Source of the DNA: a virus
Lineage: Duplodnaviria; Caudoviricetes
Virus record (IMG/VR): IMGVR_UViG_3300028128_000337
Span: 34,279 to 98,278 of that record
DNA: 64,000 nucleotides
Strand: one strand, 5' to 3'
The position numbers were made by a program, and so were the translations under genes. The notes under the pieces were generated by a model. It was not told the DNA's origin. It worked only from the letters and a program-made list of their open reading frames with translations, and did no database searches. Positions 1-17,618 of the stretch are shown here, piece after piece; position 1 is the first letter of the stretch, and every line of letters starts with the position of its first letter.

Positions 1-582
1 TATTTTTGTTACATTTTTATTTCCAGTCTTCTCAATGTAATATTCTTTCATGTAATCACAAGTGACTGTTATCTCATCCACCATACCCATCATCTCCATC
101 GTAGCATTCCGTATATCCTCATCAACAAATGCTCCTCGAAATTTGTTGTACTCCGGGATATCTTCATAGAACACTATGTCATCGATCTCATACACTAGGT
201 TGAAGTTGAGCTTGTTGCTCAATTTTTTTAAATATCTAACAAAGTTGAGCTGCGCTGGTGTTGCTTGCCGTTGTATTCTCACACACTTTACGTTTGTGTA
301 GAATTTTTCATCTGACACCATTACTGTACTGCCGTGCACAATCGCCTTTTGATATGCATTTAATACATGCTCCGGCCACAACATTCTCCAAAAACCACAC
401 CCACTAAAATCTGCATAATAATTTATACCTCTAGGCATATTAGCTTCTCTGGGACGAGATTCAGGTGTTATGTTATTTGGTCTCGGTTTTGGTATATTCA
501 GTGGTGTTATCCCGGGGGTGTTTATGTTGGGTGTTGTACCTATAACTGAGCCAACAACTGTACCTGGTGCTTTTTTAAACAT
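1..582 (-). CDS. Putative glycosyltransferase (GT-B/GT4-like), 3' end runs off the window; absent from ORF track
   Basis: Manual translation from ATG at 582: MFKKAPGTVV...NYYADFSGCGFWRMLWP...LVYEIDDIVF...DEITVTCDYMKEYY, open to position 1; TTAAATA late-promoter-like box 5 nt upstream. Confidence 0.65.
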   Translation of the reverse strand, partial: MFKKAPGTVVGSVIGTTPNINTPGITPLNIPKPRPNNITPESRPREANMPRGINYYADFSGCGFWRMLWPEHVLNAYQKAIVHGSTVMVSDEKFYTNVKCVRIQRQATPAQLNFVRYLKKLSNKLNFNLVYEIDDIVFYEDIPEYNKFRGAFVDEDIRNATMEMMGMVDEITVTCDYMKEYYIEKTGNKNVTKI

Positions 583-586
583 AATA

Positions 587-2401
587 TTATTTAAGTTCGG
601 ATTGAGGGGTTTCAACTCGAGTGGTTACCCCGTTTTGTTTTTCTAGAAAAATGATCTCTCCCGTCGCCATCTTAGTACTCTCTTTACGGTGACTGATAAC
701 CATTACACATTCATTAAAATTATCAATTCGCTCTTTTAATATCTCTATCACTAGCTCCACCCCACGCTCATCTAAACTACTGTCAAACAATTCATCATAC
801 ATACTAAAATTGAACGCCACATCACCTTGCAGTCTACGAATATCCATAAATGCAAACAGGCATGCGAGGTCAATATTTTTCCGCTCAGCTCCACTGAAAT
901 TAAAATATGAACATGGTTTACCTTTCTCGTCTATTATCTCTTCCTCGAAGTATTCATTAAACACACATATACAGTTACTATCCATCTTCTTCAAATAGTA
1001 TGCAAGTTTTGAGTTTAATAGTTGTAGTATCTTTTTTACAATATATGATTTAACACCCTCCTCAGACACTACAAACTTTATCACATCAAGCCGGGAGATT
1101 GATTTCTTGATCACATCTATTGCTTGTTGCTTTGACTCGAGTCTCACCGTCACCTCTTCAATCTGCTTGTCAATAGTATTGTCCCAGTTTTTTAAACTCT
1201 TAACATCATCAGCAATATCAGTAAATTGTGTTTTCAGCTGCTTGATTTGATTGTCAATATTTATTATATTTTGTCTCTGTAGATTGGCTTTATTCAGCTT
1301 ATTATTCAATTTATTCTTTTCATCTACTAATTGTTGCTGTATAGATCTAGCTTTTGTTAACCGAGTCTTGATCGCATCTCTTTCATCGGTCAACTGTTTA
1401 ACTACCTGTTGCGTGTTGCCCCTCTCCTGATCGATATACACTCGATGTGTATCATCCATTTCATGCAAACATACCGGGCATTGATGGTGGTCGGAGCTCA
1501 TTTTAGATAGTTTTTGTTGGTTTACCTCGATTAATGTTTTGGTTTTAGTGTGACTCTTCATAAAATCACTAACTTTGACTTCTGCTTTGTTTGTTGCATC
1601 ATTTATATTCGATATCTGACTAGAGATATCGTCAATATTAACTGGCTTAATCGTGTCCCTTTCCTTCATGAGTTTATCCATCTCTCTCTGACAACTCTCC
1701 TTCCGGGAATTGAGTTTATTTTTAGCTCTTAATTGTTCATTTTCAGCGTTTTGTTTCTGTACATTTAATGTGTTGATGCTGTTTGACACCTCTTCATACT
1801 TAACACACTCTATATCTAGTTCCCTGACAACACTATTATATTCACTCCGGACATCAGTCAACATGTCACTGAACACTTGTAAATTTAAAATACCTTCGAT
1901 AAACTTACGCTTTTCCAGTTTTTTCTTGGCCATGAATGGTGTTGCGTTGTTTATGGTCAATATTACGCAGTTCTGAAACACGTCTGATGTCGTGTTCAGC
2001 AGCTTGCATATATATTCTGTTGTGTTGACTATAGAATCTCTTGTTATATCCACACCATCTCTGTATAATATACATTTAGATGGTGATATTTTTCTAATCA
2101 CTCTGTATATGTTACTATCACCATCAACATTAACATCGAAGTCTAGTTCAACAACACAATCCCGTTGTGTTATGTTGTTTATTATGTGATCTTTTTTGAG
2201 TTCTCTTAATGTCGTACCATACAATGCAAAATATATACTATCTGCGATCGTACTCTTACCTACACCATTTCTACGATCAACCTTATCTCTATTACTACCT
2301 GTGATTATGTTCAATCCTTCATTGAACTCAACATGCACTGGTTCATCACCGACACTCAGGAAGTTTTTAATTTTAATTCTTTTAAAATTTATATATTTCA
2401 T
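587..2401 (-). CDS. 46: Recombination ATPase, T4 gp46 / SbcC-Rad50 family
   Basis: Walker A NGVGKST, long coiled coil with CPVC zinc hook, FSGAE signature, DELFDSSLD Walker B/D-loop, ISH. Confidence 0.95.
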   Translation of the reverse strand: MKYINFKRIKIKNFLSVGDEPVHVEFNEGLNIITGSNRDKVDRRNGVGKSTIADSIYFALYGTTLRELKKDHIINNITQRDCVVELDFDVNVDGDSNIYRVIRKISPSKCILYRDGVDITRDSIVNTTEYICKLLNTTSDVFQNCVILTINNATPFMAKKKLEKRKFIEGILNLQVFSDMLTDVRSEYNSVVRELDIECVKYEEVSNSINTLNVQKQNAENEQLRAKNKLNSRKESCQREMDKLMKERDTIKPVNIDDISSQISNINDATNKAEVKVSDFMKSHTKTKTLIEVNQQKLSKMSSDHHQCPVCLHEMDDTHRVYIDQERGNTQQVVKQLTDERDAIKTRLTKARSIQQQLVDEKNKLNNKLNKANLQRQNIINIDNQIKQLKTQFTDIADDVKSLKNWDNTIDKQIEEVTVRLESKQQAIDVIKKSISRLDVIKFVVSEEGVKSYIVKKILQLLNSKLAYYLKKMDSNCICVFNEYFEEEIIDEKGKPCSYFNFSGAERKNIDLACLFAFMDIRRLQGDVAFNFSMYDELFDSSLDERGVELVIEILKERIDNFNECVMVISHRKESTKMATGEIIFLEKQNGVTTRVETPQSELK

Positions 2402-3453
2402 TTGTATTTCCTATACAAGTCAACAGTGTAGTCTATTATTTGTTGTTTATCGTCAACATCTTCTAGCATGTTTATAAATTCCTCAATGGCTATAGTAACA
2501 TCCACTCCGGACAGGTCATGATCATTCTCATCTTCAAGTCCGAATTTGTTAAATGTTATGTCGTAGTCCGCTGTTATGCTTTTCGCGTTCAATTCAATAT
2601 ATTTTTTTAACAGTAGATCCATGTCATCAGGTGCCACCTGCCGGTCTATTATGAGCTTGACAATATTATTTGCAAACATCTCCCGGACTTCATCCGTTAG
2701 TGAGCCATGTGCTACTAGTTCTGATAATTTTATTTTTTGATGTGTTGGTGAGATATCATTTACGTAAAAATCATAATCTCCGGTCACAATGTCAAGTAAG
2801 TAATATCCTTTGATTCCATTAACATCACCAAAATCCATTTGATATGGATTTCCTAGATATAATATTTTACCATTTTTATATACACGCTCCTCTCGTAAGT
2901 GAAAATGTCCGGTTATTACTAATGGTGTTTTGGAGAGTATAGACTCACTCTTGATACCATCCTCACACACCTTGTGTTGATTGAACCGGAAAGATTGTAT
3001 TTCGAAGTGGCCAAACACGATGTCACTCTCCATTATTTGTTCTGGTTCTGTACCCCATGGACAGAACATCAGTTTGCGATTGAAACACTCATATTGTGTT
3101 GGTTGTGATACAACCGTTATGTTATCCCACCCACTCAATATGGACAATGAATTGATATCTGATTTGTCCTTGTAATATGCATCGTGGTTACCGACTAGTA
3201 TTACAATATTAAACCTTTTCCACATGTTCAATATCTGTGTTGTAACATGTATGGTGTTTACAGCGATCTCATCTCGGTAATGAAATAAGTCCCCGGGTAT
3301 TAGTATGTCTGTCACACCGTGCTTGTCTAACTCCCTAGACAACCAACCGGCCCATTCTACAGTAATGTCATGCCACATCTGCGAGTTTTGATGTACCCCG
3401 ATATGTATATCCGAAACGCAACAGACTTTTCTGTCGTTTAATTTAAGTTTCAT
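2398..3453 (-). CDS. 47: Recombination nuclease, T4 gp47 / SbcD-Mre11 family
   Basis: Metallophosphoesterase motifs SDIHIG, GDLFH, GNHD, GHFH; adjacent to gp46; start set at MKLKL (3453). Confidence 0.95.
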   Translation of the reverse strand: MKLKLNDRKVCCVSDIHIGVHQNSQMWHDITVEWAGWLSRELDKHGVTDILIPGDLFHYRDEIAVNTIHVTTQILNMWKRFNIVILVGNHDAYYKDKSDINSLSILSGWDNITVVSQPTQYECFNRKLMFCPWGTEPEQIMESDIVFGHFEIQSFRFNQHKVCEDGIKSESILSKTPLVITGHFHLREERVYKNGKILYLGNPYQMDFGDVNGIKGYYLLDIVTGDYDFYVNDISPTHQKIKLSELVAHGSLTDEVREMFANNIVKLIIDRQVAPDDMDLLLKKYIELNAKSITADYDITFNKFGLEDENDHDLSGVDVTIAIEEFINMLEDVDDKQQIIDYTVDLYRKYK

Positions 3454-3877
3454 CAGAACCAGCACTTGTAGTCTTACCACCCATTGTAAATTCTTGTGCT
3501 AAATCTTCGTATACCATCTCTTGATAGTCAGACACAACCTGTCTTTGCTTTTTCTCCTTTTTTATTCTGTTGATGAAAGCGTGGAAGGCGATTGTGGTGA
3601 AGTATGAAAATGGATTGTTACCTGTAGACAGATCGAACTTTTTACTCTGTAACGCAGAAAACATTTTAACTATCGCGTCTCCAACCATGTCATCTTTGTA
3701 TGAGTAGTTTATAAAATTTGGCGCGTAGCTCAAACCGGTTGCGATTTTAAATATCTTCATACCTAGTTCTTCACCAATGTCATCTGTACCACTTTCATAG
3801 TATGTTTTGATATCCTGTGTGAATTCCTTTGGACTCACATAGTATGGTTTATCTTTCTTTGATTTTCTTGATGCCAT
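3443..3877 (-). CDS. 55: Late-transcription sigma factor, T4 gp55-like
   Basis: YV..KEF, NFINYSYKDDMVGDAI, NPFSYFTTIAFHAFINRIKKEKK; position between uvsW and gp47. Confidence 0.92.
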   Translation of the reverse strand: MASRKSKKDKPYYVSPKEFTQDIKTYYESGTDDIGEELGMKIFKIATGLSYAPNFINYSYKDDMVGDAIVKMFSALQSKKFDLSTGNNPFSYFTTIAFHAFINRIKKEKKQRQVVSDYQEMVYEDLAQEFTMGGKTTSAGSDET

Positions 3878-5306
3878 ATTCTATTTTCTCCCCCTTGTAT
3901 AGAGTTAATCTCTTCATATAATGTTGATTGCTATAATGTAACATGTCCGCTATGTCTATAATTATAACACCTTTTTTGTCAGTATGCAAGCGTAGACCTC
4001 TACCAATACTCTGTATTATCTTAACCTTAGCCTTACCACCACCCGCAAATACTATATAATGTAAATTTTTGATGTTGATCCCGGTGGAAAATATTTTAGA
4101 TATCGCCACACATATCACATCACTGGTGGTCTCCATCAATTGCCGGATCTTGTCACGCTCATCAACTGCCACCTCTCCTCTTATAAAAAACACACGCTTG
4201 TTCTTACATTGTGATTTTAAAATACCGAACAATTCTTCTCCATGCGCTATATAATCCACCATTATCAATCCGTTGTTGTTAAAATTATTACACAGTTTGT
4301 TTATTATGCTATTTCGAAATTTGTTTTTGAGTAAAAATTCACCCTCTCTCCGGAATTTCGCAGAGGGGTCATATCTATCTGCTGGGAAGATTGGTGGTTT
4401 GTCGTTATATTCGATCCGAATGACTTGTACTCGCGCTCTAGCAACATAATCATCCTGTCTCAACTGATAACTGCTCCTCTCATATAACACTGGTCCTATC
4501 TTACCAAGGATATTCCACTGATCAATCTTTTTTTCCGGCATGGTTCCTGTGAACCCGAACTTGTGTGGTGTTGATATCTTCTTTATCAACTTGTTTATCT
4601 TGTTATCTTTCCGGAGCTTGTGTACTTCATCCACAATTAACATGTCAACATCTTGTATCCATGATGTATCTGATTTGTCACTCTGTAATATGCCCATGTT
4701 AGCGATTATTATGTTGCTACCCATATCAAGCTTGTTGTTACCCGTCCATTTAGAGTGTGTAAATGTGGTTCTATATTCTAAAAAATCACTATATGTTTGA
4801 TTCACTAGTCCGAGATCCGGAACTAACAACAAGCACTTCAATTGTTTGTTTTTCTTGTATATGTTTTCTATAAGATTTGCTATAGTTAATGTTTTACCCC
4901 CTGCGGTGGCTAGAATTGTGACTCCACGACCACGCTTCAGACACACATCCACTATATTTTGTTGGTAGTCTCTCAACTCCAGTGCTAATTTGGCTCGATC
5001 CTCTCTGTAAACATCATTATAACCCGGGTGAACAACTTGTCTCAAAGAATCTTGTATGTGTATCTTCGTGTCCGTCGTGTTGTTCTTGACAAATTTGTTA
5101 ATCTCGTGAAACAGTCCGGGTTCGAACCGACCTTGCGGGGTGATCACATACCGTCGACTAGCAGCAAAGCGGTTTCGGAACCTAGCATATTTGGCAGCTT
5201 CATTTTGTACTGAGAAATGTTCGCGGATCTCATCAAAGTGATCCCCTGTGACTTGTGCCATATTCTTTTTAGCATCATAGTCAAATATTACGGTATATTT
5301 TGACAT
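3849..5306 (-). CDS. uvsW: UvsW-like SF2 DNA helicase
   Basis: LRDYQ, ATAGGKT, DEVH, GFTGT, STGINI, QSIGRGLR. Confidence 0.93.
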   Translation of the reverse strand: MSKYTVIFDYDAKKNMAQVTGDHFDEIREHFSVQNEAAKYARFRNRFAASRRYVITPQGRFEPGLFHEINKFVKNNTTDTKIHIQDSLRQVVHPGYNDVYREDRAKLALELRDYQQNIVDVCLKRGRGVTILATAGGKTLTIANLIENIYKKNKQLKCLLLVPDLGLVNQTYSDFLEYRTTFTHSKWTGNNKLDMGSNIIIANMGILQSDKSDTSWIQDVDMLIVDEVHKLRKDNKINKLIKKISTPHKFGFTGTMPEKKIDQWNILGKIGPVLYERSSYQLRQDDYVARARVQVIRIEYNDKPPIFPADRYDPSAKFRREGEFLLKNKFRNSIINKLCNNFNNNGLIMVDYIAHGEELFGILKSQCKNKRVFFIRGEVAVDERDKIRQLMETTSDVICVAISKIFSTGINIKNLHYIVFAGGGKAKVKIIQSIGRGLRLHTDKKGVIIIDIADMLHYSNQHYMKRLTLYKGEKIEYGIKKIKER

Positions 5307-5701
5307 TATAATGTCTCTAGCTTCATTATTTCAGTTATGTTTTTTATGTCGAATGACATGCTGCTGAATATCCTCTCACTCTTCTCCAGGAACTCGACGA
5401 TCAATTTTTGTTCCTTGAGCTGGTCGTCAATGCCTTTTACCCGTGAGTGTTTTTCTGCGGCTTTTTGCGCGGTTGGTAGTGTCACTTGATATGTTGCAGT
5501 ATCTATAACCTCTTGAGCTAATTCTCTTATCACATTATCACGTGATTGTGTCAATCTACCAATGTCTCCCTTATGTCTGATCAATCTACCCACCCACTTG
5601 TGCTTCAATGCCGGTAATTTCATCTGTGCTTCCTTTAGATTGAACTCATCTAACTCAACATCAACACCCATTTCTTTAATATACTCTTCCAGTTGCTTCA
5701 T
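5306..5701 (-). CDS. uvsY: UvsY-like recombination mediator
   Basis: 131-aa helical protein (DEFNL...P..KHKW...SFDIKNI) immediately upstream of uvsW. Confidence 0.8.
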   Translation of the reverse strand: MKQLEEYIKEMGVDVELDEFNLKEAQMKLPALKHKWVGRLIRHKGDIGRLTQSRDNVIRELAQEVIDTATYQVTLPTAQKAAEKHSRVKGIDDQLKEQKLIVEFLEKSERIFSSMSFDIKNITEIMKLETL

Positions 5702-5716
5702 ATATGCTTAAGTATA

Positions 5717-5745
5717 ATTATAACATATATTTAGCATATAATCAA
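5717..5745 (-). promoter_or_regulatory. Sigma70-type promoter for the uvsY-uvsW-55-47-46 operon
   Basis: Minus strand TTGATT-N17-TATAAT. Confidence 0.7.
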
Positions 5746-6012
5746 ATGAAATTATTCGAACAACAATTTATCAAACATCTCATTAGTGAGGACAATGTGG
5801 CAGGTGCCGGGGGTGTATTCGGATCCGGGGAAGATAGTGTGACGCAGTCCATGAGTCATGGGGGGGATTTCGATAATACCGATTTTTACAACCCGGATGA
5901 CACTAGAATTGCTAAAGGTGGTAAGAGAGGTGGTAAAAAAAAGAAAAAACATGATGGTAGCTTACAGCCATTGATACCATTGCAGCGTAGAATAACAATA
6001 AAATCATTGTAA
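5746..6012 (+). CDS. Small hypothetical protein, possible internal head protein
   Basis: Start set at MKLFEQQFIKHLISE (capsid-targeting-like); basic C-terminus. Confidence 0.55.
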   Translation: MKLFEQQFIKHLISEDNVAGAGGVFGSGEDSVTQSMSHGGDFDNTDFYNPDDTRIAKGGKRGGKKKKKHDGSLQPLIPLQRRITIKSL

Positions 6013-6020
6013 GTAACTGT

Positions 6021-6521
6021 ATGACCTCTCCACAGAAAGCCAAGGGCAATAGCTTCGAACGTGACATAGCTAAGCATTTATCAGATGTATTCGGTAGTAA
6101 TTTCGCCAGAGTACCTACTAGCGGTGCGATGACCGGTGGGATCAATGCTCATGTCCTTGAGAAGTTGAGTGACAGTCAGAAGTTGTTGTTAGAAGGTGAT
6201 ATAATACCACCAGATAACATGAAGAGATTGAAGATAGAGTGTAAAGCACACAAGGTTTTCTCTTTTGCTAAAATTTTCTCCGAAAACAAACAGCTAGATG
6301 ACTGGATAGCACAAGCTCGTGGTAGAGATAAGGTTTGGTTTTTAATATTCAAGATCAACCGGAAAGGTACGTATATATGTTTCACAAGAAATGTGTTTAA
6401 AACATGCGACAGTCTTGTAGATGTCAATCATCTAGTTTACAAAAAATATTATTATGTGACTCATATGGATGGTTTTTTTGAAAAGCATCGTAGTGTTTTG
6501 TTGCGTCTTTGTCAAGATTGA
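6021..6521 (+). CDS. Holliday junction resolvase-like PD-(D/E)XK nuclease (Hjc type)
   Basis: KAKGNSFER, R..TSGA, GDI, IECK, W..QA motifs. Confidence 0.8.
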   Translation: MTSPQKAKGNSFERDIAKHLSDVFGSNFARVPTSGAMTGGINAHVLEKLSDSQKLLLEGDIIPPDNMKRLKIECKAHKVFSFAKIFSENKQLDDWIAQARGRDKVWFLIFKINRKGTYICFTRNVFKTCDSLVDVNHLVYKKYYYVTHMDGFFEKHRSVLLRLCQD

Positions 6522-6535
6522 TTTAAAATATCCTC

Positions 6536-7117
6536 ATGCAGCATGTGGATCTAAACAACTATGGTATTAGAGTGGTAAATTTCGCTGAAGTTTTCACTCT
6601 TGCTTACAAGGAGATAGTCAAAGACCTGTACACATATGATAAATTTCATGATCACAATGTGAGATCACAGGACACTAGACGGATATATTATTATCACTTG
6701 ATAAAGCACATGTGTGATTTGATAATACATAGCAAAACTGACAACAAGATTGTTATTTTCTATAGTGACAAAGATATCAAGTGTGATTTTAAACAATGTA
6801 CTAACAGAAAAACACGGAGATTTAAAAAAGACACCAAGCCGGCGTTTAGATTGTTCATGGATCGCTTTTTCCGAGCGATAAAATCGATGTTACCAGTGAA
6901 AATGCATGTAAGTGACGTCAAATTCGACACTTTTGTACAGTATTATAACACAAACAAGGGTAAATATATAGAAATCATAAATATCCTGAGGATTCCACCG
7001 AATAGGTCGTATAGTACGTTGGAAAAATTTAATAAGTTTGTTGATAAATACAAATTAACATATTTAAATAAACATTATGTTAACAACGTGAAACTTAAGT
7101 GTGTTATGTATAAATAA
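6536..7117 (+). CDS. Hypothetical protein
   Basis: 193-aa ORF in tight + strand gene string. Confidence 0.6.
   Translation: MQHVDLNNYGIRVVNFAEVFTLAYKEIVKDLYTYDKFHDHNVRSQDTRRIYYYHLIKHMCDLIIHSKTDNKIVIFYSDKDIKCDFKQCTNRKTRRFKKDTKPAFRLFMDRFFRAIKSMLPVKMHVSDVKFDTFVQYYNTNKGKYIEIINILRIPPNRSYSTLEKFNKFVDKYKLTYLNKHYVNNVKLKCVMYK
7109..7116 (+). promoter_or_regulatory. T4-type late promoter TATAAATA
   Basis: Exact TATAAATA 5 nt before ATG at 7122; gp55 encoded in window. Confidence 0.75.
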
Positions 7118-7121
7118 TATT

Positions 7122-7712
7122 ATGACTTTTGACAAGAGTATCAGTAAACATGAAAAAATTTATTTGAACAAGCATGACAGGTCGACTACTACAGATAAAT
7201 TAGATACACTATTAGAAGGTTTCACAGATTTTGCTGATAAATTTCACTCAGCAGCCATGGGAGGTGATTCCATTGGAGCTGGTAAACAGATTGCAGGCAC
7301 CATGCAACAGGCTAGTGATAAGATATCTGGTGTCACTTCCGGTGATCGGGCGATGGAGCAGAGCATTAAGCAAGGTTGGACTAACATGACCTCCCAACAA
7401 CAGTCCTCTTATAACCAACCCAATCAAAACTTACAGCAAATAGCGCAAAACACACCAGGGTGGGAGAAATATAGAGACTTAACCGGGTTTAACAGGTATG
7501 CAGCAGAAGTTAGACTCAACAAGCATGTCACAGATCCTCAACAGCGTGAGACACTAGGATTACAACCAAGGAGGACGGAAGTCAAACAAGGTGAACAAGG
7601 ATGGGAGGACAAAGTGAAGAGAGAGTGGGATCGCTTACCGGATGCACAAAAGAATTCCAGTCATTTTAAGAATGATTTTACCAACTATTTGAATTGGAGA
7701 AACACTCAATAA
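7122..7712 (+). CDS. Hypothetical Q-rich late protein, possible internal head protein
   Basis: Start re-set to ATG 7122 after TATAAATA; N-terminal region contains LLE. Confidence 0.6.
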   Translation: MTFDKSISKHEKIYLNKHDRSTTTDKLDTLLEGFTDFADKFHSAAMGGDSIGAGKQIAGTMQQASDKISGVTSGDRAMEQSIKQGWTNMTSQQQSSYNQPNQNLQQIAQNTPGWEKYRDLTGFNRYAAEVRLNKHVTDPQQRETLGLQPRRTEVKQGEQGWEDKVKREWDRLPDAQKNSSHFKNDFTNYLNWRNTQ

Positions 7713-7730
7713 CATAAGTATAATCAAACC

Positions 7731-8066
7731 ATGGATAAATTTATAAGCATTATTGATGAGAATCTTAAAATTCTCAATGAACAGGAACCACCAACAGAAC
7801 CATCCGGAGATGTGCCACCTCCACCACCAGAGACCGAGACACCTCCAAGCGAGTTGCCGGATCAAGACGCTGGTGATGACGACACATCCAAAATGAAGAT
7901 TGACTATGTGGAGATGATCAGAAAAGCGTTGATCATGGCACCCAAACACATCGATGACGTGGATTACGCCCGGTTGACCAAGATTGTTGACACAGAGAAC
8001 TTAGAAGAGATGCAAGAGTTGGTGAGCAGAATTGTTCGTAACAATTATCCACATCCTGATTTGTGA
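7731..8066 (+). CDS. Hypothetical acidic/Pro-rich protein, possible internal head protein
   Basis: MDKFISIIDENLKILNEQ N-terminus, PPPPPE linker. Confidence 0.6.
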   Translation: MDKFISIIDENLKILNEQEPPTEPSGDVPPPPPETETPPSELPDQDAGDDDTSKMKIDYVEMIRKALIMAPKHIDDVDYARLTKIVDTENLEEMQELVSRIVRNNYPHPDL

Positions 8067-9217
8067 TGAGTGACCGTGATCTGAGAAATTTGTATGAAAA
8101 CATCCAACGAGGGGATGAATATATTGCTCCGCGGAGAGCTCATGAGTTGTATCATGATGTATTGTCAGAAAAGCGTGGTAATGATGAGCTAAAAGTATTA
8201 TGTAAAAAATTAAATGATATCGGTGATAGAGGATATCTATCAGATGGTGATATTTTATATTTGAATCAATTTTTAGATGCTCGTGCATATTTGCCGGTAA
8301 TAACTAGTTATTTAAATGATAGTAACATAATACAAACAACGTTATCAGATAAAAATGCTGTTGAAGGCATAACAAAAATTTTACAATCTGCCGGTGTGTC
8401 CGATATGTTTGTCGAATATCTCAATTCGCAGCTGAGCTTTAACATTTTAGGTAAATCCGGGAATTTATTGGATATTATTTCTAGTAAATTGAGCAAATTT
8501 AACATACCACGTGATGTTATCGTACAGTTAATGCAGTTCGAAGGTACTGAAGGTGGTAGAGGTGTAGGTCAGTGTGAGTTAGGACTTGCGACGATATTTA
8601 ATGATGTTACTGTTCGAGATGGTCATGGAGACCTTAGTTGGAAAGGTGAATATCTTGAAGTTAAAGGTAGTAAGGCTAGACTCGGTGGTAGAGATGTTCC
8701 ACTCACGGGGTTCGAACAAACAATATTAGGCTCATTCGCTATACAACATGAGCTACCATTTAGTACTATAAAGAGTGGTGGTGATAAATACAATATTGTT
8801 GATACAATAATTGGCTTAAGTAAAGCCGGGATTCCAACAGCTCAGCTGAAAGCCGGTGTGATTGAATTTGTTAAGAAATGTTATCCAAACTCAGGTAGTG
8901 TGCCAATACCAGGTTCGTTTAAGGATAGAGGTAAGCTGAGAAACTACCTAGAGACATGTTACTTTACCCACTACGCATTAACAGAGGGTGTTGAGCATTT
9001 TATTTTTATCAACACAGGTACATCTCAAAAGAGTGGTTCAGATATTAAAACACCTACTGCTAACTTCGGTAAATTTATAATATTTCAAACACAAGATATA
9101 CCAAAACTAGTAAATGCTGGCGCTATTGGTGCAAGTACAATAACTTCAGCTAACATTTACCCTAGTCTTGGTGCACCAAATGTTAGTCAGGTACCATTAG
9201 AGGGGGCGATGGAATAA
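8063..9217 (+). CDS. Hypothetical protein with possible PD-(D/E)XK nuclease core
   Basis: GVGQCE...GDL....LEVKG motif spacing; AT-rich body. Confidence 0.5.
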   Translation: MMSDRDLRNLYENIQRGDEYIAPRRAHELYHDVLSEKRGNDELKVLCKKLNDIGDRGYLSDGDILYLNQFLDARAYLPVITSYLNDSNIIQTTLSDKNAVEGITKILQSAGVSDMFVEYLNSQLSFNILGKSGNLLDIISSKLSKFNIPRDVIVQLMQFEGTEGGRGVGQCELGLATIFNDVTVRDGHGDLSWKGEYLEVKGSKARLGGRDVPLTGFEQTILGSFAIQHELPFSTIKSGGDKYNIVDTIIGLSKAGIPTAQLKAGVIEFVKKCYPNSGSVPIPGSFKDRGKLRNYLETCYFTHYALTEGVEHFIFINTGTSQKSGSDIKTPTANFGKFIIFQTQDIPKLVNAGAIGASTITSANIYPSLGAPNVSQVPLEGAME

Positions 9218-9218
9218 C

Positions 9219-10547
9219 ATGAATTTTAAAGCATATAACAGAGTAATAGAGGAAGGGGGTGCCTATGGTCACATGATGAACGTGCATGAGGACTACACTT
9301 TACAGTTTGAGGACCTGCAAAGAATCATCAAACAAGCGCTGACCGGTGGTATCAAAGGTCAAGTCAAAGAGAAAACTGACGGTCAAGCGTTAGCTGTGAG
9401 TCATCGTGCCAATCGTGTGTGTTTCGCAAGGAACAAGGGTCATTACAAGAACTTTGGCAAGAACGCCATACGTGGTGCCAAGGGCATTGCAGAATTTTTC
9501 AAGGAGCATCCGAATGACAACGTGAAAGAAGCGTTCACATTCGCGGCAAAGGATCTAGAGAAAGCCATCCTGGCGTTGAGTGACAGACAGAAGCAACTGT
9601 TGTTCGCAGATGGCAAGAGATGGATCAACGTGGAAGTGATCTGGCCAGCCACTGTGAATGTGATACCGTACAATCACGAGCTGTTGGTCTTGCACAACTT
9701 TCGTGAGTATGATGAGGATGGTAATGTTGTTGATGGTGATTTTGACGAGTATGGTCGCATGATGGCAGGCATGATCGAGCAGATCAACCAACACGTGCAG
9801 GACAAATTCACAATAACCAGCATGCCAATATTGAAATTGCCTCAAGTTAAAAATTTTGAAGCCAGCATCGGTGAGTATCAAGGTGTGTTGAGCAACCTGA
9901 TGACCGAACACGGACTGAATCCTAGCAACAACATCGGTGACTACTGGGTGAGTTACATGAGCCGAGTGGTTCAGAACGGAGCACGTGAGTTCGGTTACAT
10001 AGCACAAGCAGATACGCTTAGAAGAATCGCGTATAGATGGGCGTTCAAAATGCTCACTCCAGGCAAACGTCCCAAAGATTACAACTCGTTAGCGTTGAGC
10101 AAGATCACCGAGCTCAAGGGTATGGTTGACAATCGAGAGTTCATACAATGGATCAGCGCCACCGAGAAGAGTGGTGAGCTCAAGAGCATCTACAATCGGA
10201 TGATCGAGCCTCTCAAAGCGTTGTTTCTCAAGCTTGGTGTGGAGTTGAACAAGAACATTTCCAATCTACTCACACTGAATCCATCACAAGCTGTCCAGGA
10301 GATACGACAAGGAATTGAAGAAGTTACAAGAGAAATTGAGGCGACAGGAGATCTAGCATTGATGGACAAGCTACATCATGAGCTAAAAATGATAAACAAG
10401 CTGGGTGGACTGGACAACATAGTACCAAGTGAGGGTCTCACGTTCACATACACGTCACCTGGTGACAGCGAGCCTAAAATTTACAAATTCACGGGCATAT
10501 TCGCACCAGTTAATCAAATTCTAGGTAGCTTAAAATTCAGTCGGTGA
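9219..10547 (+). CDS. Covalent nucleotidyltransferase (ATP-dependent ligase)-fold protein, DUF6267-like
   Basis: EGGAYGHM N-terminus; motif I KEKTDG, motif IV-like SEGLTF, motif V-like YKFTG. Confidence 0.65.
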   Translation: MNFKAYNRVIEEGGAYGHMMNVHEDYTLQFEDLQRIIKQALTGGIKGQVKEKTDGQALAVSHRANRVCFARNKGHYKNFGKNAIRGAKGIAEFFKEHPNDNVKEAFTFAAKDLEKAILALSDRQKQLLFADGKRWINVEVIWPATVNVIPYNHELLVLHNFREYDEDGNVVDGDFDEYGRMMAGMIEQINQHVQDKFTITSMPILKLPQVKNFEASIGEYQGVLSNLMTEHGLNPSNNIGDYWVSYMSRVVQNGAREFGYIAQADTLRRIAYRWAFKMLTPGKRPKDYNSLALSKITELKGMVDNREFIQWISATEKSGELKSIYNRMIEPLKALFLKLGVELNKNISNLLTLNPSQAVQEIRQGIEEVTREIEATGDLALMDKLHHELKMINKLGGLDNIVPSEGLTFTYTSPGDSEPKIYKFTGIFAPVNQILGSLKFSR

Positions 10548-10778
10548 TCAAGACTGTCTCAATTTCTTGATTTTGTCATCCATGTAGCGTTCTGATTCAC
10601 GTTTAGCTCTAGACAGATCTGGTGTTAATTTCTTACCTTGTTCATCCATCTCTTCAGCACTCTGCTGTATTTCTATAGCGGCATCCATCTTCTCACCTTC
10701 AGTTTCTTCATCCGAAGCCTCATATATGCTCATGTACGCTTGTTGCAGTTGATCAAATTCGTTTCTCTTTGTGTTCAT
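10548..10778 (-). CDS. Small acidic late protein, possible internal head protein
   Basis: ATAAATA 6 nt upstream; LQQAYMSIYE N-terminal motif. Confidence 0.55.
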   Translation of the reverse strand: MNTKRNEFDQLQQAYMSIYEASDEETEGEKMDAAIEIQQSAEEMDEQGKKLTPDLSRAKRESERYMDDKIKKLRQS

Positions 10779-10790
10779 TGTGTATATTTA

Positions 10791-11159
10791 TTAAAATTTG
10801 TCAGATACGCTAGGGTTTGGGTGGTTCACTTGGAACCCTGCACTTCCATTGTACTGTAAATATTCTTGTGGCTTACCATCCAATCCCGGTTGAGTTTTCA
10901 CGACCGATGTTTGGTTTCTGTTACCATCTGGACCCTGTTCATAATATTCTGAATCGCTCCCCGGGCGGGAGATGCATCTGCCGGTGGTGTCGTCTATCAC
11001 CGGTGGTTGTTCACCAGGATTGAACTGGTACAACTCATAAACTCTATACTCAGTTGGCTTGCCGGATGGCCCAATCGCAGTTTTTGTTGTGAACGTTGCG
11101 GTGTTTATATCCCCCGCATTGCCCGGTTTTCGCCAATATGATCTGTTTCCTCCTGCCAT
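10791..11159 (-). CDS. Small Gly/Pro-rich late protein
   Basis: Start re-set to MAGGNRSYW (11159), ATAAATA 5 nt upstream; internal repeat KTAIGPSGKPTEY / KTQPGLDGKPQEY. Confidence 0.55.
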   Translation of the reverse strand: MAGGNRSYWRKPGNAGDINTATFTTKTAIGPSGKPTEYRVYELYQFNPGEQPPVIDDTTGRCISRPGSDSEYYEQGPDGNRNQTSVVKTQPGLDGKPQEYLQYNGSAGFQVNHPNPSVSDKF

Positions 11160-11213
11160 AATAATATTTATTAATTTTAATTGAAATATATCAGTAACAA
11201 CATAAATAGATAC

Positions 11214-11393
11214 ATGAGCGACACTCACAACAACCTCCTGTCTCAAGTTGAGCAATACATTCAAGATAACGAGAAGTTTTCTGACAAAGGAAACAAAGCT
11301 GCTGGTACCCGGGCACGCAAAGCGTTGATGGAAATTACCAAGCTATGCAAGGACCGGAGGAAAGAGATCCAAGAAGCCAAGAATAACTCATAA
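11214..11393 (+). CDS. Histone H1-like (Hc1-type) small basic helical protein
   Basis: EKFSDKGNKAAGTRARKALMEITKLCKDRRKEIQEAKN; ATAAATA 5 nt upstream. Confidence 0.75.
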   Translation: MSDTHNNLLSQVEQYIQDNEKFSDKGNKAAGTRARKALMEITKLCKDRRKEIQEAKNNS

Positions 11394-11412
11394 GCTTTAC
11401 ATAAATACTTCT

Positions 11413-11880
11413 ATGCATAACAAGACGTGGAAGAAAGAAAAGGATTTATTATCTGAAGCTTACGCTTCAATCAGCGAGACAACTCATGAGAATGATGCGC
11501 CGGCGCTTGGTAGGGATGAAGAGAGACAGTCTGATGGTAGTGTTAAAAACATTAAGACCGGAGAGACGGTGTACACACCCAAGGATAAGAGTCAAGCGGA
11601 TGAGGGTATCGCGACTGATTTGGCGAACGCTGATCGACCCGCGGGAGATGATCACCTTGAAATGGAGCCCGGAGAGGTACCGGAAGACATAATGGGACAT
11701 GAACCGGATGAAGTTGACGCGGAAATTGATTCTTTAAAAAATTTAATTCTCAACCCGTCCAAAGACAAGGTAGAGGAATACGCACGTAACGGTCAATTAC
11801 ATGTGTATGTGGATATGCTTAAAAAGAAGTTGGAAGCTGCTGAAGCTGTAAAGGCAGCGGTACGAGGGGAACAGGATTAA
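11413..11880 (+). CDS. Acidic late protein, possible internal head protein
   Basis: ATAAATA at 11401; DLLSEAYASISE N-terminal motif. Confidence 0.6.
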   Translation: MHNKTWKKEKDLLSEAYASISETTHENDAPALGRDEERQSDGSVKNIKTGETVYTPKDKSQADEGIATDLANADRPAGDDHLEMEPGEVPEDIMGHEPDEVDAEIDSLKNLILNPSKDKVEEYARNGQLHVYVDMLKKKLEAAEAVKAAVRGEQD

Positions 11881-12046
11881 CTAATCACTAACCCGTTTGT
11901 AAGCTAACAGTATAGTTGATATTATAACAATTAACGTAAACACGAATACCCCGTTATATGCATGAGAGACATGCTCACACGCACCGGTGGTACAGTCTAT
12001 ATATTTTGTATCAATCTTATTAAGTATGGTTTTCACTTGATTGGTG

Positions 12047-13165
12047 TTATCTCAATCCGGTCGTCTCAAATACATCTCTAGCTACCCCGGCTGAAAAACC
12101 TCCGGTTACTCCCTTCACTATTACTGACACCGCATTGTGACTGTGTAGACTTTCGTTGTGTGATGCTACAATCTTAAAATCCTTGATACGAGACTCGTTA
12201 TTTAATTTTTCATACATTAACCTCACCGCGTCCTCTACAAATTTTAAATTAGATCCATTGAGCTCGGCAAATGCTTGCTCATCTTCACGCTTGACCATCA
12301 CCTGTGTCTCAGTCTGCAAGGCCGCTAAACACAACTCCTGTATATCCTCTACCCATAGCATGTCATCAAAACGTACACTCACTCGAGCCACACTCCGTTG
12401 ACTATGTGGCACGGTAGCCCGATTTCGGTATTTTTCAGCATGCTCGCTCAGCTCGAAACTACATGGGCATGCGGATGAATATACAAAATCAAAGTGTATA
12501 TATTTTTTAAATTCTCCGGATTTGGTCAAATCACCTTCAAACACCACGTCATAATACTGAAAACCTTCCAAACCACTTCTCAAGCTCTTCTGTCTAATAG
12601 GATACGAAGTCTTTAGCATGATTCTAGAGTCAAAACACATTAGATTTTTTTTATAATTCTCTAGCACGTCTCTTATTTTGTCAATGCTAAATGTTTCATC
12701 CTTGTGATTGTAAAAGCTTCTCATGATTCTCGACATGTTAATCCCTTTTTTATGTGCTTCTAGGCTTACGCTACCCGTGACACTAGTTTCTAGCTCAATC
12801 GTTGCACCACTTCTCTTCTTGTACGTCAATGGTAATCTGAAATTGTGTATACCTACTTGTTGTATCGCCACCGGTGCTCCCTGTATCAGACTTGATGGCC
12901 CGTTTTGCAGGTCTGGTAATGAAGAGATGTACTCTTTATCGGCTGTTAGCTTGTTGTCATACACTCTAATAGGTGACGCATAACCCTTACTATACTCATC
13001 CCCCATGATTTTCTTGGCGATATCGTCTTTCTCTCCGGTCAACTCGTCATCCCCTAGCCACTCATAATTATTCTCTGGTACACCTTGTGACATCTGCTCC
13101 GTCCAACGATCGATTTCCTTTATTTGCTCCCGGGAGCGTGTGTAATTACCATTTGTTTCTGACAT
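12047..13165 (-). CDS. folE2: GTP cyclohydrolase I type B (FolE2)
   Basis: LPDLQ, IQQVGI, KGINMSR, SACPCS, PHSQRS, VKREDEQAFA, FVEDAVR, ESLHSHNA; start set at MSETN from promoter spacing. Confidence 0.92.
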   Translation of the reverse strand: MSETNGNYTRSREQIKEIDRWTEQMSQGVPENNYEWLGDDELTGEKDDIAKKIMGDEYSKGYASPIRVYDNKLTADKEYISSLPDLQNGPSSLIQGAPVAIQQVGIHNFRLPLTYKKRSGATIELETSVTGSVSLEAHKKGINMSRIMRSFYNHKDETFSIDKIRDVLENYKKNLMCFDSRIMLKTSYPIRQKSLRSGLEGFQYYDVVFEGDLTKSGEFKKYIHFDFVYSSACPCSFELSEHAEKYRNRATVPHSQRSVARVSVRFDDMLWVEDIQELCLAALQTETQVMVKREDEQAFAELNGSNLKFVEDAVRLMYEKLNNESRIKDFKIVASHNESLHSHNAVSVIVKGVTGGFSAGVARDVFETTGLR

Positions 13166-13171
13166 ACTTTG

Positions 13172-13200
13172 ATTATATATTATTACATACATTAATTCAA
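13172..13200 (-). promoter_or_regulatory. Sigma70-type promoter, probably leaderless folE2 mRNA
   Basis: TTGAAT-N17-TATAAT-N6-ATG. Confidence 0.75.
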
Positions 13201-13222
13201 CTACAATTTAATAAATAATATT

Positions 13223-13657
13223 ATGTCCAAATTCAACTCAATACTAGAAAATCATTTGAACACAACTAGTCTACTTAGAATACGTATCAAACATGACCCG
13301 GCTAATGATCCAGGGCAGTTGGAGGAATATGTGGGTTATGTGCTCGAGGAAGACGGTACTGGTAATATTGTAGCAATCGTTCCCAGCATGGGTTCAGATA
13401 CAGTGTCGCTCGGCCCGGATCAGTACCTGCCGGATGCTGAAGGTTGTGGTATCAGACAAGATGAACTGGCTGCGTTTAAGAAGCATGTGGTGAATTTTTT
13501 GATGGCTAGGGGTTATCATGATGCTGTTAGTAACAGTATGGAGCATATAATACATGCAAATGATGTCAAGATGTTAGAGAATATACTAGTACAAACATGT
13601 GGATGTGATTCAGGTGCGATACTTGACATGTATAGGGATTTTATACAGGATGTTTGA
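13223..13657 (+). CDS. Hypothetical late protein
   Basis: ATAAATA at 13211; MSKFNSILE N-terminus; YVGYVLEE motif. Confidence 0.6.
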   Translation: MSKFNSILENHLNTTSLLRIRIKHDPANDPGQLEEYVGYVLEEDGTGNIVAIVPSMGSDTVSLGPDQYLPDAEGCGIRQDELAAFKKHVVNFLMARGYHDAVSNSMEHIIHANDVKMLENILVQTCGCDSGAILDMYRDFIQDV

Positions 13658-14306
13658 GTCATTTGAACAGCTGTACAACACTATCATAAGCGAACAACAA
13701 AATAATGTTGAAAAAATTGGTGTGTTTCCAGGAGCATTCAAACCACCACACATGGGACACTACGCCACTGCATTGAATGCATGTAAATCCAACGACAGGG
13801 TCTATATTTTTGTTTCGAATAAGTCCAGAGCACTGACCACACAACACATCGCAAAACAAAAAGGAGCGAAAGATTGTGATGCAGATCGATATAGTAACTT
13901 CATGAAAAATGACAAATACACCAGCAACCTGCTGAGTATCAGCCCGGCAGCTTGCGCGCGGATGACGAGTGCCAGTGCCATGCGCGCAGCAATTTCTATA
14001 AAGGACAAAAACACAATATTCAAAAACTTACCGGATGGTGTTGACAAAGATTATATCTTCGGTTTACTTATGATGAGCAATGATCAAAACAACCCAGAGT
14101 ATGGTCATATCTCAATAGAGCAGACCATGCAAATATGGTCACAATACAAACAACTACTTTTGAAGCACTCTGGTAGGTCAGATCAAGATATTGTGCTGCA
14201 GATTTCCCAAATAAGTCCCGTCAAAGACACATATGACCTGGTGCATGAGATAAATAACAGTGAGGGTGCTAGAAATACTAGTGTCAATTTATATGTAGGT
14301 ACATGA
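13650..14306 (+). CDS. HxGH (cytidylyltransferase/NMNAT-like) nucleotidyltransferase
   Basis: GVFPGAFKPPHMGHY and TSASAMR motifs; start set at MFESFEQLYNTIISE. Confidence 0.75.
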   Translation: MFESFEQLYNTIISEQQNNVEKIGVFPGAFKPPHMGHYATALNACKSNDRVYIFVSNKSRALTTQHIAKQKGAKDCDADRYSNFMKNDKYTSNLLSISPAACARMTSASAMRAAISIKDKNTIFKNLPDGVDKDYIFGLLMMSNDQNNPEYGHISIEQTMQIWSQYKQLLLKHSGRSDQDIVLQISQISPVKDTYDLVHEINNSEGARNTSVNLYVGT

Positions 14307-14737
14307 TGAAGAGGTTTGGTAGATATGATAGTGATTACAACAATCTGTTTGAATGTTACAGTAAGGTTCAACCTGGACTTATACGTGAGGTGAGTCTACC
14401 GAGCATGACGCGACAGAAGATCACCAAATCACATGGTAATTCATATCCAGAACTAGAAACAGTCAAAATATTCATACAACAACCCGGGCGTGGAGCGGAT
14501 CTAAGACATCAGGTATCCAATTGTGAAGTGATGAGTGATGATGGTGATGGGGGTGTTGTATTGACCGGGGAGGATGGTAGGGACACGATACATGCTGTGT
14601 TGACCAAGCGAGATGCACAGATAAAGGTGATAGATTCTAATGATGGTCATGTTGAGAATGAATTTATAACAACCATACAACCTAAATTTGATTCAGATCA
14701 AAAGGAACTTAGAATAATACATGTAGAAGAATTATGA
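14303..14737 (+). CDS. Hypothetical protein
   Basis: 144-aa ORF overlapping neighbours by 4 nt. Confidence 0.55.
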   Translation: MMKRFGRYDSDYNNLFECYSKVQPGLIREVSLPSMTRQKITKSHGNSYPELETVKIFIQQPGRGADLRHQVSNCEVMSDDGDGGVVLTGEDGRDTIHAVLTKRDAQIKVIDSNDGHVENEFITTIQPKFDSDQKELRIIHVEEL

Positions 14738-14937
14738 AACAACTGAAACATAATGAGAAGCGTGACAGTGTGATACTCTGTTGCGGAAGTAAACGCTGCC
14801 CGGAACTGTTTAATGCAGGTGATGATAAAATACGTATACGTGATGATGATGGTTTTATAATCACAATTTCAAAAGAACAAGCCCGGCTCATTCCTCAAGC
14901 CATTGACATGGTGGACAAAAATAAAGCTGATGATTGA
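14734..14937 (+). CDS. Small hypothetical protein with CC-x4-C motif
   Basis: ILCCGSKRCPEL; translationally coupled. Confidence 0.55.
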   Translation: MKQLKHNEKRDSVILCCGSKRCPELFNAGDDKIRIRDDDGFIITISKEQARLIPQAIDMVDKNKADD

Positions 14938-15202
14938 GCTAGTATGTTGTGTGGGTTTGCATTGGATCTTGAAATATGGTACCATCTTGAATGTTATCAG
15001 AGATCAAATCACACGTATCAATCTGATATCCAGGTTGTTCAAGTGTAGTTTATGTCTTGGATTTTGGTGTGGTGTGATTGTTGCTCTGTTCACATCAAAC
15101 GACCTGTTAATATACAGTTTCGCGTCCGCTGGGGCATGTTGGTTCATAGACAACATCAACAACACTCTACAAAGTATAGAAATTAAGCTTGATAAAGACT
15201 GA
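14930..15202 (+). CDS. Small membrane protein, DUF1360-like
   Basis: Hydrophobic helices with LFKCSLCLGFWCG (C-x2-C-x2-FW). Confidence 0.6.
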   Translation: MIELVCCVGLHWILKYGTILNVIRDQITRINLISRLFKCSLCLGFWCGVIVALFTSNDLLIYSFASAGACWFIDNINNTLQSIEIKLDKD

Positions 15203-15217
15203 GACGTATGTTATAAT
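15189..15217 (+). promoter_or_regulatory. Sigma70-type promoter, probably leaderless queD mRNA
   Basis: TTGATA-N17-TATAAT-N6-ATG(15224). Confidence 0.75.
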
Positions 15218-15223
15218 TATTGT

Positions 15224-15841
15224 ATGTTTACAAGTACAAAAATTATTGAATTAGGTAGCTGTGCGTTCAGACAACCTAATGCAGATTCTCATTGCAGGTT
15301 TCTGCATGGTTATAGGTTAACAGCTAAGTTTTGGTTTAGATCTGAAAAATTGGATGATAATAACTGGGTTGTTGATTTTGGTGGATTGAAGGATCTAAAG
15401 AAACAATTACAGAAGCAATTTGATCATACTACATGCATATCCAGAACAGATCCAAAGCTAGACATTTTCAAGAATATGAGAGATGCTGGTGTGTGTGACT
15501 TGAGAGTCATGGACGGTGTTGGTATCGAAAAATTTGCGGAATGGTGTCATGATGCGGCTGATGAATTTGTCAGTTTGACGACTGATATGAGATGTAGGTG
15601 TGTGGCAGTTGAAGTGTTTGAGCATGAGAATAATTCTGCAATCTTTAGCACTCCGGTGGAGAAGCTCACACCAGCCAAACAAGAGGATGTTTTTTCAGTT
15701 CCGGAACAGGAGAAAGGTGTAGTGGTTCCAGAAAATGCATTTTCAGTACCTGTTGAACCAGGAAAAACACCAGCTCCGTTGAATTGTAAGAAGAGTACTA
15801 GCTGGATAGACAAGGAATCTACCAACACATGGGGACTATGA
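15224..15841 (+). CDS. queD: 6-carboxy-tetrahydropterin synthase QueD (PTPS family) with C-terminal extension
   Basis: SHCRFLHGY, WVVDFGGLK, FDH, GIEKFAE, VFEHENNSA; adjacent to queE. Confidence 0.88.
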   Translation: MFTSTKIIELGSCAFRQPNADSHCRFLHGYRLTAKFWFRSEKLDDNNWVVDFGGLKDLKKQLQKQFDHTTCISRTDPKLDIFKNMRDAGVCDLRVMDGVGIEKFAEWCHDAADEFVSLTTDMRCRCVAVEVFEHENNSAIFSTPVEKLTPAKQEDVFSVPEQEKGVVVPENAFSVPVEPGKTPAPLNCKKSTSWIDKESTNTWGL

Positions 15842-16629
15842 CACAACACAAACCAATACCAACATCATTAGATTTATCTGAGAGTTTCTACTCTGTTCAA
15901 TGCGAGGGTAACACAACAGGTTATCCAGCGTATTTCATACGATTGAAATCATGTAACTTAATGTGTGGTGGGAGAAATGGCTCGTTGATGGACACCGGTG
16001 AGGCTACATGGTGGTGTGACACTGAAGCTGTGTGGCGGAAGGGATTAGAGAAGCCCTTTTTCAAGTTGGTTCAACAATGGGAGGAAGAGAAGATTGATCA
16101 GTGGATATACAATGGTAGAGTGCATTTGATATGGACTGGTGGTGAGCCTACCATACCTAAGCACCAGCGAGCTATTCCTGCGTTCAGTGAATTTTTGAGA
16201 CAACATGCCTTCAATCAACACAATATAGAGCTCAACACTTTTGATGAAATTGAAACAAACGGTACGTTGGTTATCCAAGATCAATTATTCTATATGTTGG
16301 ATCAGATCAATTGCTCGGTAAAGCTGGCCAATAGTGGTATGGCAGAGAACAGGCGTATTGTACCGGCAGCCCTAGAAAAGATAATGTCACATGATAATTA
16401 CTGGTTCAAGTTCGTGATCAGTACAGAAGAGTGTCTTAAGGAGATTGAGAGAGATTTCATCAAACCATTCAACATACCACACGATAGAGTGATGATGCAA
16501 CCGGGTCTAGATAGACAAGAGAACTACCACGAGAGGACTCGTTTCACCCTAGAGATGGCTAAAAAGTATGGTTATATTGGATTGTCTAGATTACATGTGT
16601 CAGCGTGGGACAAATTGACTGGCGTTTAA
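15829..16629 (+). CDS. queE: 7-carboxy-7-deazaguanine synthase QueE (radical SAM)
   Basis: ESFYSVQCEG, FIRL..CNLMC...WCDT, TGGEP, IETNGT, S.KL.NSG, RLHV. Confidence 0.88.
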   Translation: MGTMTQHKPIPTSLDLSESFYSVQCEGNTTGYPAYFIRLKSCNLMCGGRNGSLMDTGEATWWCDTEAVWRKGLEKPFFKLVQQWEEEKIDQWIYNGRVHLIWTGGEPTIPKHQRAIPAFSEFLRQHAFNQHNIELNTFDEIETNGTLVIQDQLFYMLDQINCSVKLANSGMAENRRIVPAALEKIMSHDNYWFKFVISTEECLKEIERDFIKPFNIPHDRVMMQPGLDRQENYHERTRFTLEMAKKYGYIGLSRLHVSAWDKLTGV

Positions 16630-16652
16630 CATATGTGTAACTAAATATTATC

Positions 16653-17357: not shown

Positions 17358-17363
17358 CTATAT

Positions 17364-17618
17364 ATGAAACAATTCAATGAGCGTTTAGATGACATAACAG
17401 AAAATTACGGGCTGTTCAAGACCGTAGTCAGAGAAAGATACCCAAGTAAGTTAAAATTGAGTGAAGAGTTTGTTGAAAGTTTCAAGCGCGAGTTTCAGAG
17501 TCAAGTAGACCCACTATACACGGAAGATGAAGACGGTGTACAAGTTTTGAGCAGAGAGGCTCGTGATCCTAAAAGAGTGTTGAAAGAGTTTCAAAAAGCT
17601 CTCAAGTTTTTGATTTAG
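17364..17618 (+). CDS. Small hypothetical late protein
   Basis: MKQFNERLDDITE N-terminus. Confidence 0.55.
   Translation: MKQFNERLDDITENYGLFKTVVRERYPSKLKLSEEFVESFKREFQSQVDPLYTEDEDGVQVLSREARDPKRVLKEFQKALKFLI

Follow-up and report, generated by a model that had tools for sequence, protein, structure and literature searches.

Phages normally purge short palindromes, so a robust and heritable excess of one such word needs a positive cause. Which cause could be at work is the question raised by the tetranucleotide CCGG in the DNA analyzed here, a stretch of 64,000 nucleotides (the window) comprising bases 34,279–98,278 of the 98,278-bp IMG/VR virus record IMGVR_UViG_3300028128_000337. The record represents an uncultured, T4-like phage; the contig has a GC content of 41%, and its completeness was estimated by CheckV to be ~46%. 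An earlier reading of the window, made from the letters only (the sequence-only reading), had noted an accumulation of CCGG and attributed it to positive selection for a modification or recognition site.

Frequency of CCGG in the Phage Genome

The analysis confirmed that CCGG is about twice as frequent as null models allow, in the phage as well as in its closest relatives. The signal was described by two features:

153..2989, unstranded: 13 CCGG sites inside the rad50-like and mre11-like genes and the flanking open reading frame (ORF)
1..64000, unstranded: window-wide CCGG excess, 250 sites, 9–22 per 4 kb, unclustered and without extended consensus

A recount of bases 1–3000 reproduced all 13 CCGG positions listed for the first 3 kb exactly, and the scarcity of GGCC, CGCG and GCGC noted for the same stretch was also found (2, 1 and 1 occurrences, respectively). 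The further remark that CCGG stays conspicuous over most of the window agrees with the 9–22 sites counted per 4 kb throughout. In the first 3 kb, the 13 observed sites compare with 3.1 expected from base composition and 6.5 expected from a second-order Markov model (Markov-2). For the window, 250 sites were observed versus 114 (base composition) and 141 (Markov-2) expected, and for the contig 423 sites versus 169 (base composition), 114 (dinucleotide) and 237 (Markov-2). Under Markov-2, CCGG ranked first of all 256 tetranucleotides of the contig (z = 16.5; z range about 12–16).

Disappearance of the excess under a codon- or amino acid-controlled null had been named beforehand as a possible refutation; the excess persisted under both shuffles applied. 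Synonymous shuffling inside genes predicted 243 ± 11 sites in coding DNA and whole-codon shuffling 187 ± 13, versus 399 observed (z = 13.9 and z = 16.8, respectively). Furthermore, a phase-specific Markov-2 model predicted 230 of these 399 sites, again with CCGG as the top word. The excess was present in all three codon phases, with observed/expected counts of 166/101, 183/105 and 50/24 for phases 0, 1 and 2, i.e., 1.65-, 1.74- and 2.07-fold, and intergenic DNA contributed 18 CCGG sites in 3.6 kb. Classical restriction-site avoidance, in which the word is under-represented, was not observed in the contig; the Markov-2 and synonymous-shuffle scores given above show the opposite.

The Enriched Word and Its Action on DNA

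The unit of enrichment is the bare tetranucleotide, and its sites are randomly scattered, because no longer word is enriched and the spacing is Poisson-like. After accounting for the respective (k-1)-mers, no 5- or 6-mer was over-represented, and the flanks of CCGG were near background with a mild A/T preference; an extended motif as the source of the excess was thereby ruled out. Regular or clustered spacing was likewise rejected, since the coefficient of variation of inter-site distances on the full contig (1.02 for 423 sites) is indistinguishable from the Poisson value of 0.995 ± 0.05.

Moreover, the excess acts on DNA and not on codons or peptides. The third base of NCN codons was C at a frequency of 0.347 before GG versus 0.083 before GA or GT. 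Proline codons (CCN) ended in G at 0.377 before G versus 0.12–0.28 before other bases, and arginine was encoded by CGG at 0.21 after a C-ending codon versus 0.06–0.09 otherwise. No comparable context effect was observed in control codon families. Among the compatible codon pairs, 398 of 2041 (19.5%) spelled CCGG. At NCN|GG, the frequency of T was 0.358 versus 0.31–0.32 in control contexts, showing no T-specific loss at the variable position.

Distribution among Related Phages

Relatives were sought by means of the polymerase, which yielded 79 viral loci. CCGG was the top-ranked word in all but one relative with at least ~58% polymerase identity, with a maximum of 4.8 times base composition among close relatives. 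More distant relatives were CCGG-neutral or strongly depleted, three of them with 0–2 sites in 12–22 kb. In a tree of the family B polymerase (PolB), computed as a quick maximum-likelihood tree with SH-aLRT as its only support measure, the CCGG-rich genomes (11 rows) fall into a single clade. A second clade is moderately CCGG-rich (ratio 1.47), and three separate clades are poor in both CCGG and CpG. The enrichment in related genomes on which the sequence-only reading had staked its proposal was found: seven contigs of the PolB clade, among them the whole contigs of six members, all have CCGG as their first-ranking word. Among these T4-like phages, the excess is limited to one clade, with a weaker excess in a second one.

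Strong variation of CCGG among related phages is also a feature of phage restriction-site avoidance (Rusinov et al. 2018, PMC6286503); in contrast to that phenomenon, the clade described here is enriched, i.e., the sign is reversed. The loss of CCGG in the out-groups is explained by general CpG depletion (CpG observed/expected (O/E) of 0.32–0.65 in the depleted out-groups) and not by CCGG-specific avoidance. Within the rich clade, CTAG, CGCG, CCAG/CTGG, ACGT and TCGA were likewise mildly above the Markov expectation. With values ranging from 0 to almost 5 times base composition, these close lineages have moved CCGG both up and down and represent a natural comparative system for over-represented palindromes.

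Other words deviated in the out-groups. Two of them (G016 and G011), with a CpG O/E of 0.32–0.37, also showed a large TGCA excess (1079 versus 281 and 1224 versus 534 expected from base composition), and GGTG/CACC was the top Markov-2 word in most out-groups.

Turnover of Individual Sites

Between 3,700 and 18,300 orthologous codons per relative were aligned. Four-fold degenerate sites showed identities of 0.35–0.39 to the relatives, which is near saturation. Positional conservation of CCGG among the relatives was not observed, sharing being no higher than independence predicts (15 versus 10.7, 10 versus 9.0 and 5 versus 4.8 shared positions). Nevertheless, in [T/A/P/S]-Gly pairs (NCC|GG) every genome uses C as the third base at 0.22–0.40 versus 0.09–0.14 elsewhere. 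Arithmetic on the codon-context frequencies given in the preceding part for NCN, proline and arginine codons yields odds ratios of ~2.5–6 per site. Because sites are unshared and the same context preference is nonetheless present in each genome, the pressure is persistent and independent of position. These results indicate a weak, persistent, genome-wide and CCGG-specific pressure with constant site turnover. Of the earlier proposal that CCGG is under positive selection for a modification or recognition site, the part that stood is a CCGG-specific pressure at the DNA level common to close relatives; the link to the folE2/queD/queE system was not supported, and a site bound by a phage protein is no more than a possibility.

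Composition and Mutation Context as a Possible Source of the Excess

An excess of this kind could in principle arise without any CCGG-specific process, as a by-product of context-dependent mutation by phage replication enzymes or of compositional constraints such as CpG loss elsewhere. In line with this, the CpG O/E of the phage is 0.79, and other NCGN words occur at 0.6–0.9 of base composition, GCGG (1.01) excepted. ACAC, TTGA and GTTG also deviate strongly under the shuffles. Furthermore, a 2-fold CCGG excess over base composition is usual in Bacteroidia: in 30 genomes of this GTDB class with GC contents of 30–45%, each sampled by one 20-kb stretch, the median was 1.96 times base composition. 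This excess is explained by the CCG/CGG trinucleotides, because the median Markov-2 ratio of the same samples is 0.99. In the phage, however, trinucleotides are insufficient, since P(G|CCG) is 0.48 versus 0.19 for P(G|DCG). CCGG also lies far ahead of other words under the phase-specific Markov-2 model and is the top word of all seven clade contigs, so that a mere by-product is considered unlikely.

7-Deazaguanine Genes and Methyltransferases

The sequence-only reading had suggested that CCGG might be a self-mark placed by the 7-deazaguanine (folE2/queD/queE) system or a methyltransferase. The following genes are relevant to this suggestion:

contig 26,527–27,240: QueC, preQ0 gene
12047..13192 (contig 46325–47470), minus strand: FolE2 (GTP cyclohydrolase I type 2), preQ0 pathway (PF02649, E 1e-72)
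15224..15841, plus strand: QueD-like protein, 6-pyruvoyl-tetrahydropterin synthase family (PF01242, E 1.9e-17)
15829..16629, plus strand: QueE-like radical SAM protein (phrog_2076, E 1.8e-40)
18719–24747, plus strand: run of glycosyltransferases with a polysaccharide pyruvyl transferase and a sulfotransferase

If CCGG were the target of a 7-deazaguanine (or further glycosylated) modification, its enrichment would serve self-mark density. The preQ0 synthesis genes required for DpdA-type modification (FolE2, QueD, QueE and QueC) are all encoded, as in phage 7-deazaguanine DNA modification systems (PMC6884629, PMC10516641), and glycosyltransferases are present in the replication block. Moreover, most 4-bp palindromes in the CCGG-rich clade are at or above their Markov-2 expectation, as expected under blunted restriction. 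In contrast to the known systems, no DpdA was detected: a search of the contig and its relatives for TGT/DpdA (PF01702), as the sequence-only reading had proposed, gave no match at E ≤ 1 in the contig and none at E ≤ 0.01 in 25 relatives, one of them a complete genome of 184.5 kb, although this profile search could miss a divergent DpdA. Phage HVTV-1, on the other hand, has deazaguanine DNA without a recognized DpdA (PMC6884629). Published target motifs of phage DpdA are GA and GGC (PMC7544227, PMC10484667) and thus differ from CCGG.

The distribution of QueC bears indirectly on the self-mark. The gene was present in 19 of 25 related records, in enriched, neutral and CCGG/CpG-depleted lineages alike, and does not track the excess. 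Protection of the word would in addition account for its tolerance and not for a 1.8–2.5-fold excess. The words that a phage tolerates or accumulates are accordingly not predictable from the presence of 7-deazaguanine genes.

A CCGG methyltransferase, the other proposed agent, was also sought. No C5 (PF00145), N4/N6 (PF01555) or D12-class (PF02086) methyltransferase was found in the 26 records, the contig itself covering ~46% of the genome. Among extra ORFs of relatives extending beyond the contig, matches were limited to ClpB-like, Asn-synthase and sugar-cluster methyltransferase proteins. No Vsr turned up among the Pfam-scanned phage proteins, PF03852 itself having been searched in bacterial genomes only. 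Since queC is indifferent to CCGG status and no DpdA/TGT, methyltransferase or Vsr was found in the records searched for each, the self-mark reading of CCGG is not supported, and a deazaguanine-type modification as the reason for the enrichment is regarded as highly improbable.

Some minor observations concern the same genes. The sugar block at 18719–24747 is confined to this contig, relatives holding other variable blocks at similar places, and its first protein matches the TET-associated DNA glycosyltransferase family below threshold. A FolE2 homologue was absent from five large out-group genomes, all of which retain QueC; FolE2-less relatives may rely on a different GTP cyclohydrolase.

A Nuclease Tracking the CCGG-Rich Clade

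CCGG could also be a bulk word, occurring once per ~230 bp and read by a phage protein such as a primase, an Hjc-like PD-(D/E)XK resolvase or a nicking/packaging factor. Because the sites are interchangeable, a reader could only respond to their bulk density and not to particular sites. In agreement with such selection, CCGG is favored over all three alternative bases and not over T alone, and the word is abundant here although phages normally lose palindromes and both sister clades and cultured Bacteroidota phages are CCGG-poor (0–8 sites per 50 kb in PTm1, phi14:2 and crAss001). A presence/absence screen of all ORFs across the related records was performed. Two genes were considered:

6021..6521, plus strand: Hjc-like PD-(D/E)XK nuclease, PF24608 (PDDEXK_15), Holliday-junction-resolvase type (E 3.9e-28)
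62792–64000, plus strand, running past the contig end: ORF with GHKL ATPase domain (HATPase_c_3, E 7.9e-10)

The PF24608 protein (166 residues) was the only gene tracking the CCGG-rich clade, occurring in 8 of the 9 records of the clade and in 0 of 17 others, including the complete genome. Its gene is located in the recombination block just downstream of uvsY. Homologues are annotated as Holliday-junction resolvases, and the conserved residues E13, D60 and E73-x-K75 form what we take to be an Hjc-type catalytic set. The match to the Hjc chain 1hh1_A in the PDB was weak and non-significant (E 0.25), with D60 aligned to residue 42. The protein may represent a non-orthologous replacement of the junction resolvase.

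The association of PF24608 with the clade, however, amounts to one phylogenetic event. The three closest cultured carriers, SCTP-2, Phosso and PA5oct, have homologues without a CCGG excess (Markov-2 ratio 1.02–1.03), and PF24608 was therefore rejected as an independent correlate of the excess. In the second, moderately CCGG-rich clade, no PF24608 was detected in the records searched. Because of the cultured carriers without excess and the second rich clade without a detected copy, the PF24608 nuclease is kept as a weak lead for the CCGG reader. Further points against a phage-encoded reader are that the spacing of sites is no more even than chance and that the word fills just 19.5% of the codon pairs that could hold it. 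Selection for a density-read word is possible but rather unlikely, and ranks as a close rival to the methylation- or repair-linked bias discussed below. Its most specific version is very unlikely: the founder of the clade would have gained a sequence-dependent DNA enzyme, with PF24608 as the candidate, and the genome would then have been selected to carry its palindrome every ~230 bp on both strands. If this were true, branched replicative DNA could be processed anywhere, and CCGG would be a virus-encoded genome word read by its density.

The HATPase_c_3 ORF, considered as a MORC/MutL-like ATPase lead, was rejected, as it occurs only in this contig among the 26 related records; no close relative of it was found in the viral contig collection. 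Regarding crAss001 (MH675552, bases 1–50000), only 44 CG dinucleotides were counted versus 1397 expected. Of these, 25 are located in the first 6 kb, together with a tRNA cluster. Since the 8 CCGG sites are all located past 6 kb, they account for 8 of the 19 remaining CpGs.

A Proposed Methylation- or Repair-Linked Bias

Among the explanations weighed, the leading one, put forward tentatively, is that a methylation- or repair-linked bias maintains CCGG as a lineage-wide genome signature. A weak genome-wide force would favor, at the variable position, the base that completes CCGG over the other three. Within the infected cell, its driver may be a non-site-specific process coupled to CCGG-directed DNA methylation and to mismatch repair or gene conversion. 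Each CCGG would then gain a small transmission advantage wherever it arises, and individual sites could be gained and lost freely. The DNA of the phage group is probably hypermodified, which would let CCGG escape purging by restriction in this clade. Such a process might resemble the ratchet proposed for the highly iterated palindromes (HIPs) of cyanobacteria or the very-short-patch (VSP) repair initiated by Vsr.

In Oscillatoria PCC 10802, rCCGGy is over-represented and a cognate methyltransferase is present; the explanation proposed was a ratchet of methyl-directed repair (Elhai 2015, PMC4390886). The likeness to the phage consists in a CCGG-centered palindrome that is enriched genome-wide and independently of reading frame. 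The phage differs in being a virus with an enriched bare tetranucleotide, flanked by weakly preferred A/T rather than by R...Y. Moreover, its excess is modest (1.8 times Markov-2, 2.5 times base composition, 19.5% of codon pairs), and no word-specific methyltransferase was found in the 26 records, the contig representing ~46% of the genome.

VSP repair by Dcm/Vsr in Escherichia coli raises CCWGG and lowers CTAG, and was first seen in crosses of phage lambda. It shares with the proposed process a weak per-site bias that raises a methylation-type palindrome, and heteroduplexes of phage DNA are among its possible substrates. The over-representation of the target palindrome expected from VSP repair was found (z = 16.5, rank 1 across the clade contigs). 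The remaining footprint was absent, which weighs against the repair-linked explanation: instead of being depleted, the deamination-product words CTGG/CCAG and also CTAG were mildly enriched (1.15–1.26 and 1.38–1.51 times Markov-2, respectively), and T was not depleted. On the same side, the phage records yielded neither a methyltransferase nor a Vsr gene, and host repair may have no access to the DNA of a virulent T4-like phage.

Cellular genomes provide a partial parallel. Two of the 30 Bacteroidia samples had a Markov-2 ratio of at least 1.5. In a complete 1.31-Mb Bacteroidia genome (G062) with a GC content of 32%, CCGG ranked first with a Markov-2 ratio of 1.80 (z 7.9 over 120 kb). CCGG ratio and CpG O/E were 1.80 and 0.81 in this genome versus 1.77 and 0.79 in the phage. 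The genome encodes an operon of Vsr, a C5-methyltransferase and an MvaI/BcnI-family nuclease (L188 7118–10019). Two results obtained from the bacterial data speak against the repair-linked explanation: CTAG is the most depleted word of the 1.31-Mb genome, the opposite of the phage, and the CCGG ratio, as judged by eye, is alike in the Vsr-positive and Vsr-negative Bacteroidia sampled. Vsr was tallied in 151 bacterial genomes, among them the unpublished genome G119, which was used nowhere else.

The promoters of the phage also count against a transfer of these data. Across the phage group (contig and relatives G002 and G014), no Shine-Dalgarno signal was found upstream of genes. Sigma-70-like boxes followed by ATG at 5–8 nt were observed 13 times versus 2.7 in shuffles (4–5-fold across the contig, G002 and G014), which suggests that early mRNAs are leaderless. 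The Bacteroidota promoter consensus was not enriched in the phage. Canonical sigma-70-type promoters would argue against a Bacteroidota host, leaving Bacteroidia as an analogy only. Because the phage promoters do not resemble the Bacteroidota type, the Bacteroidia data show only that cellular genomes can bear the signature. Other host clues were negative: no tRNA genes were found, the matches to the epimerase did not exceed 41% identity and came from unrelated metagenome-assembled genomes, an Atlas search returned viral clusters only, and the tetranucleotide correlation between the phage and the sampled Bacteroidia was at most 0.41.

Genomic Background of the Phage

A near-identity search against isolated phages gave no match, and the best PolB identity to cultured phages was ~31–32%, to T4-like cyanophages. 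The label ‘provirus’ that the record carries in IMG/VR is considered doubtful. The contig encodes a T4-type core whose structural part comprises tail sheath, baseplate proteins and the large terminase. Replication is represented by a primase-like protein, flap nuclease, gp32, DnaB-type helicase, UvsX-type RecA and family B polymerase, and recombination and repair by Rad50/Mre11, UvsY and a UvsW-like helicase.

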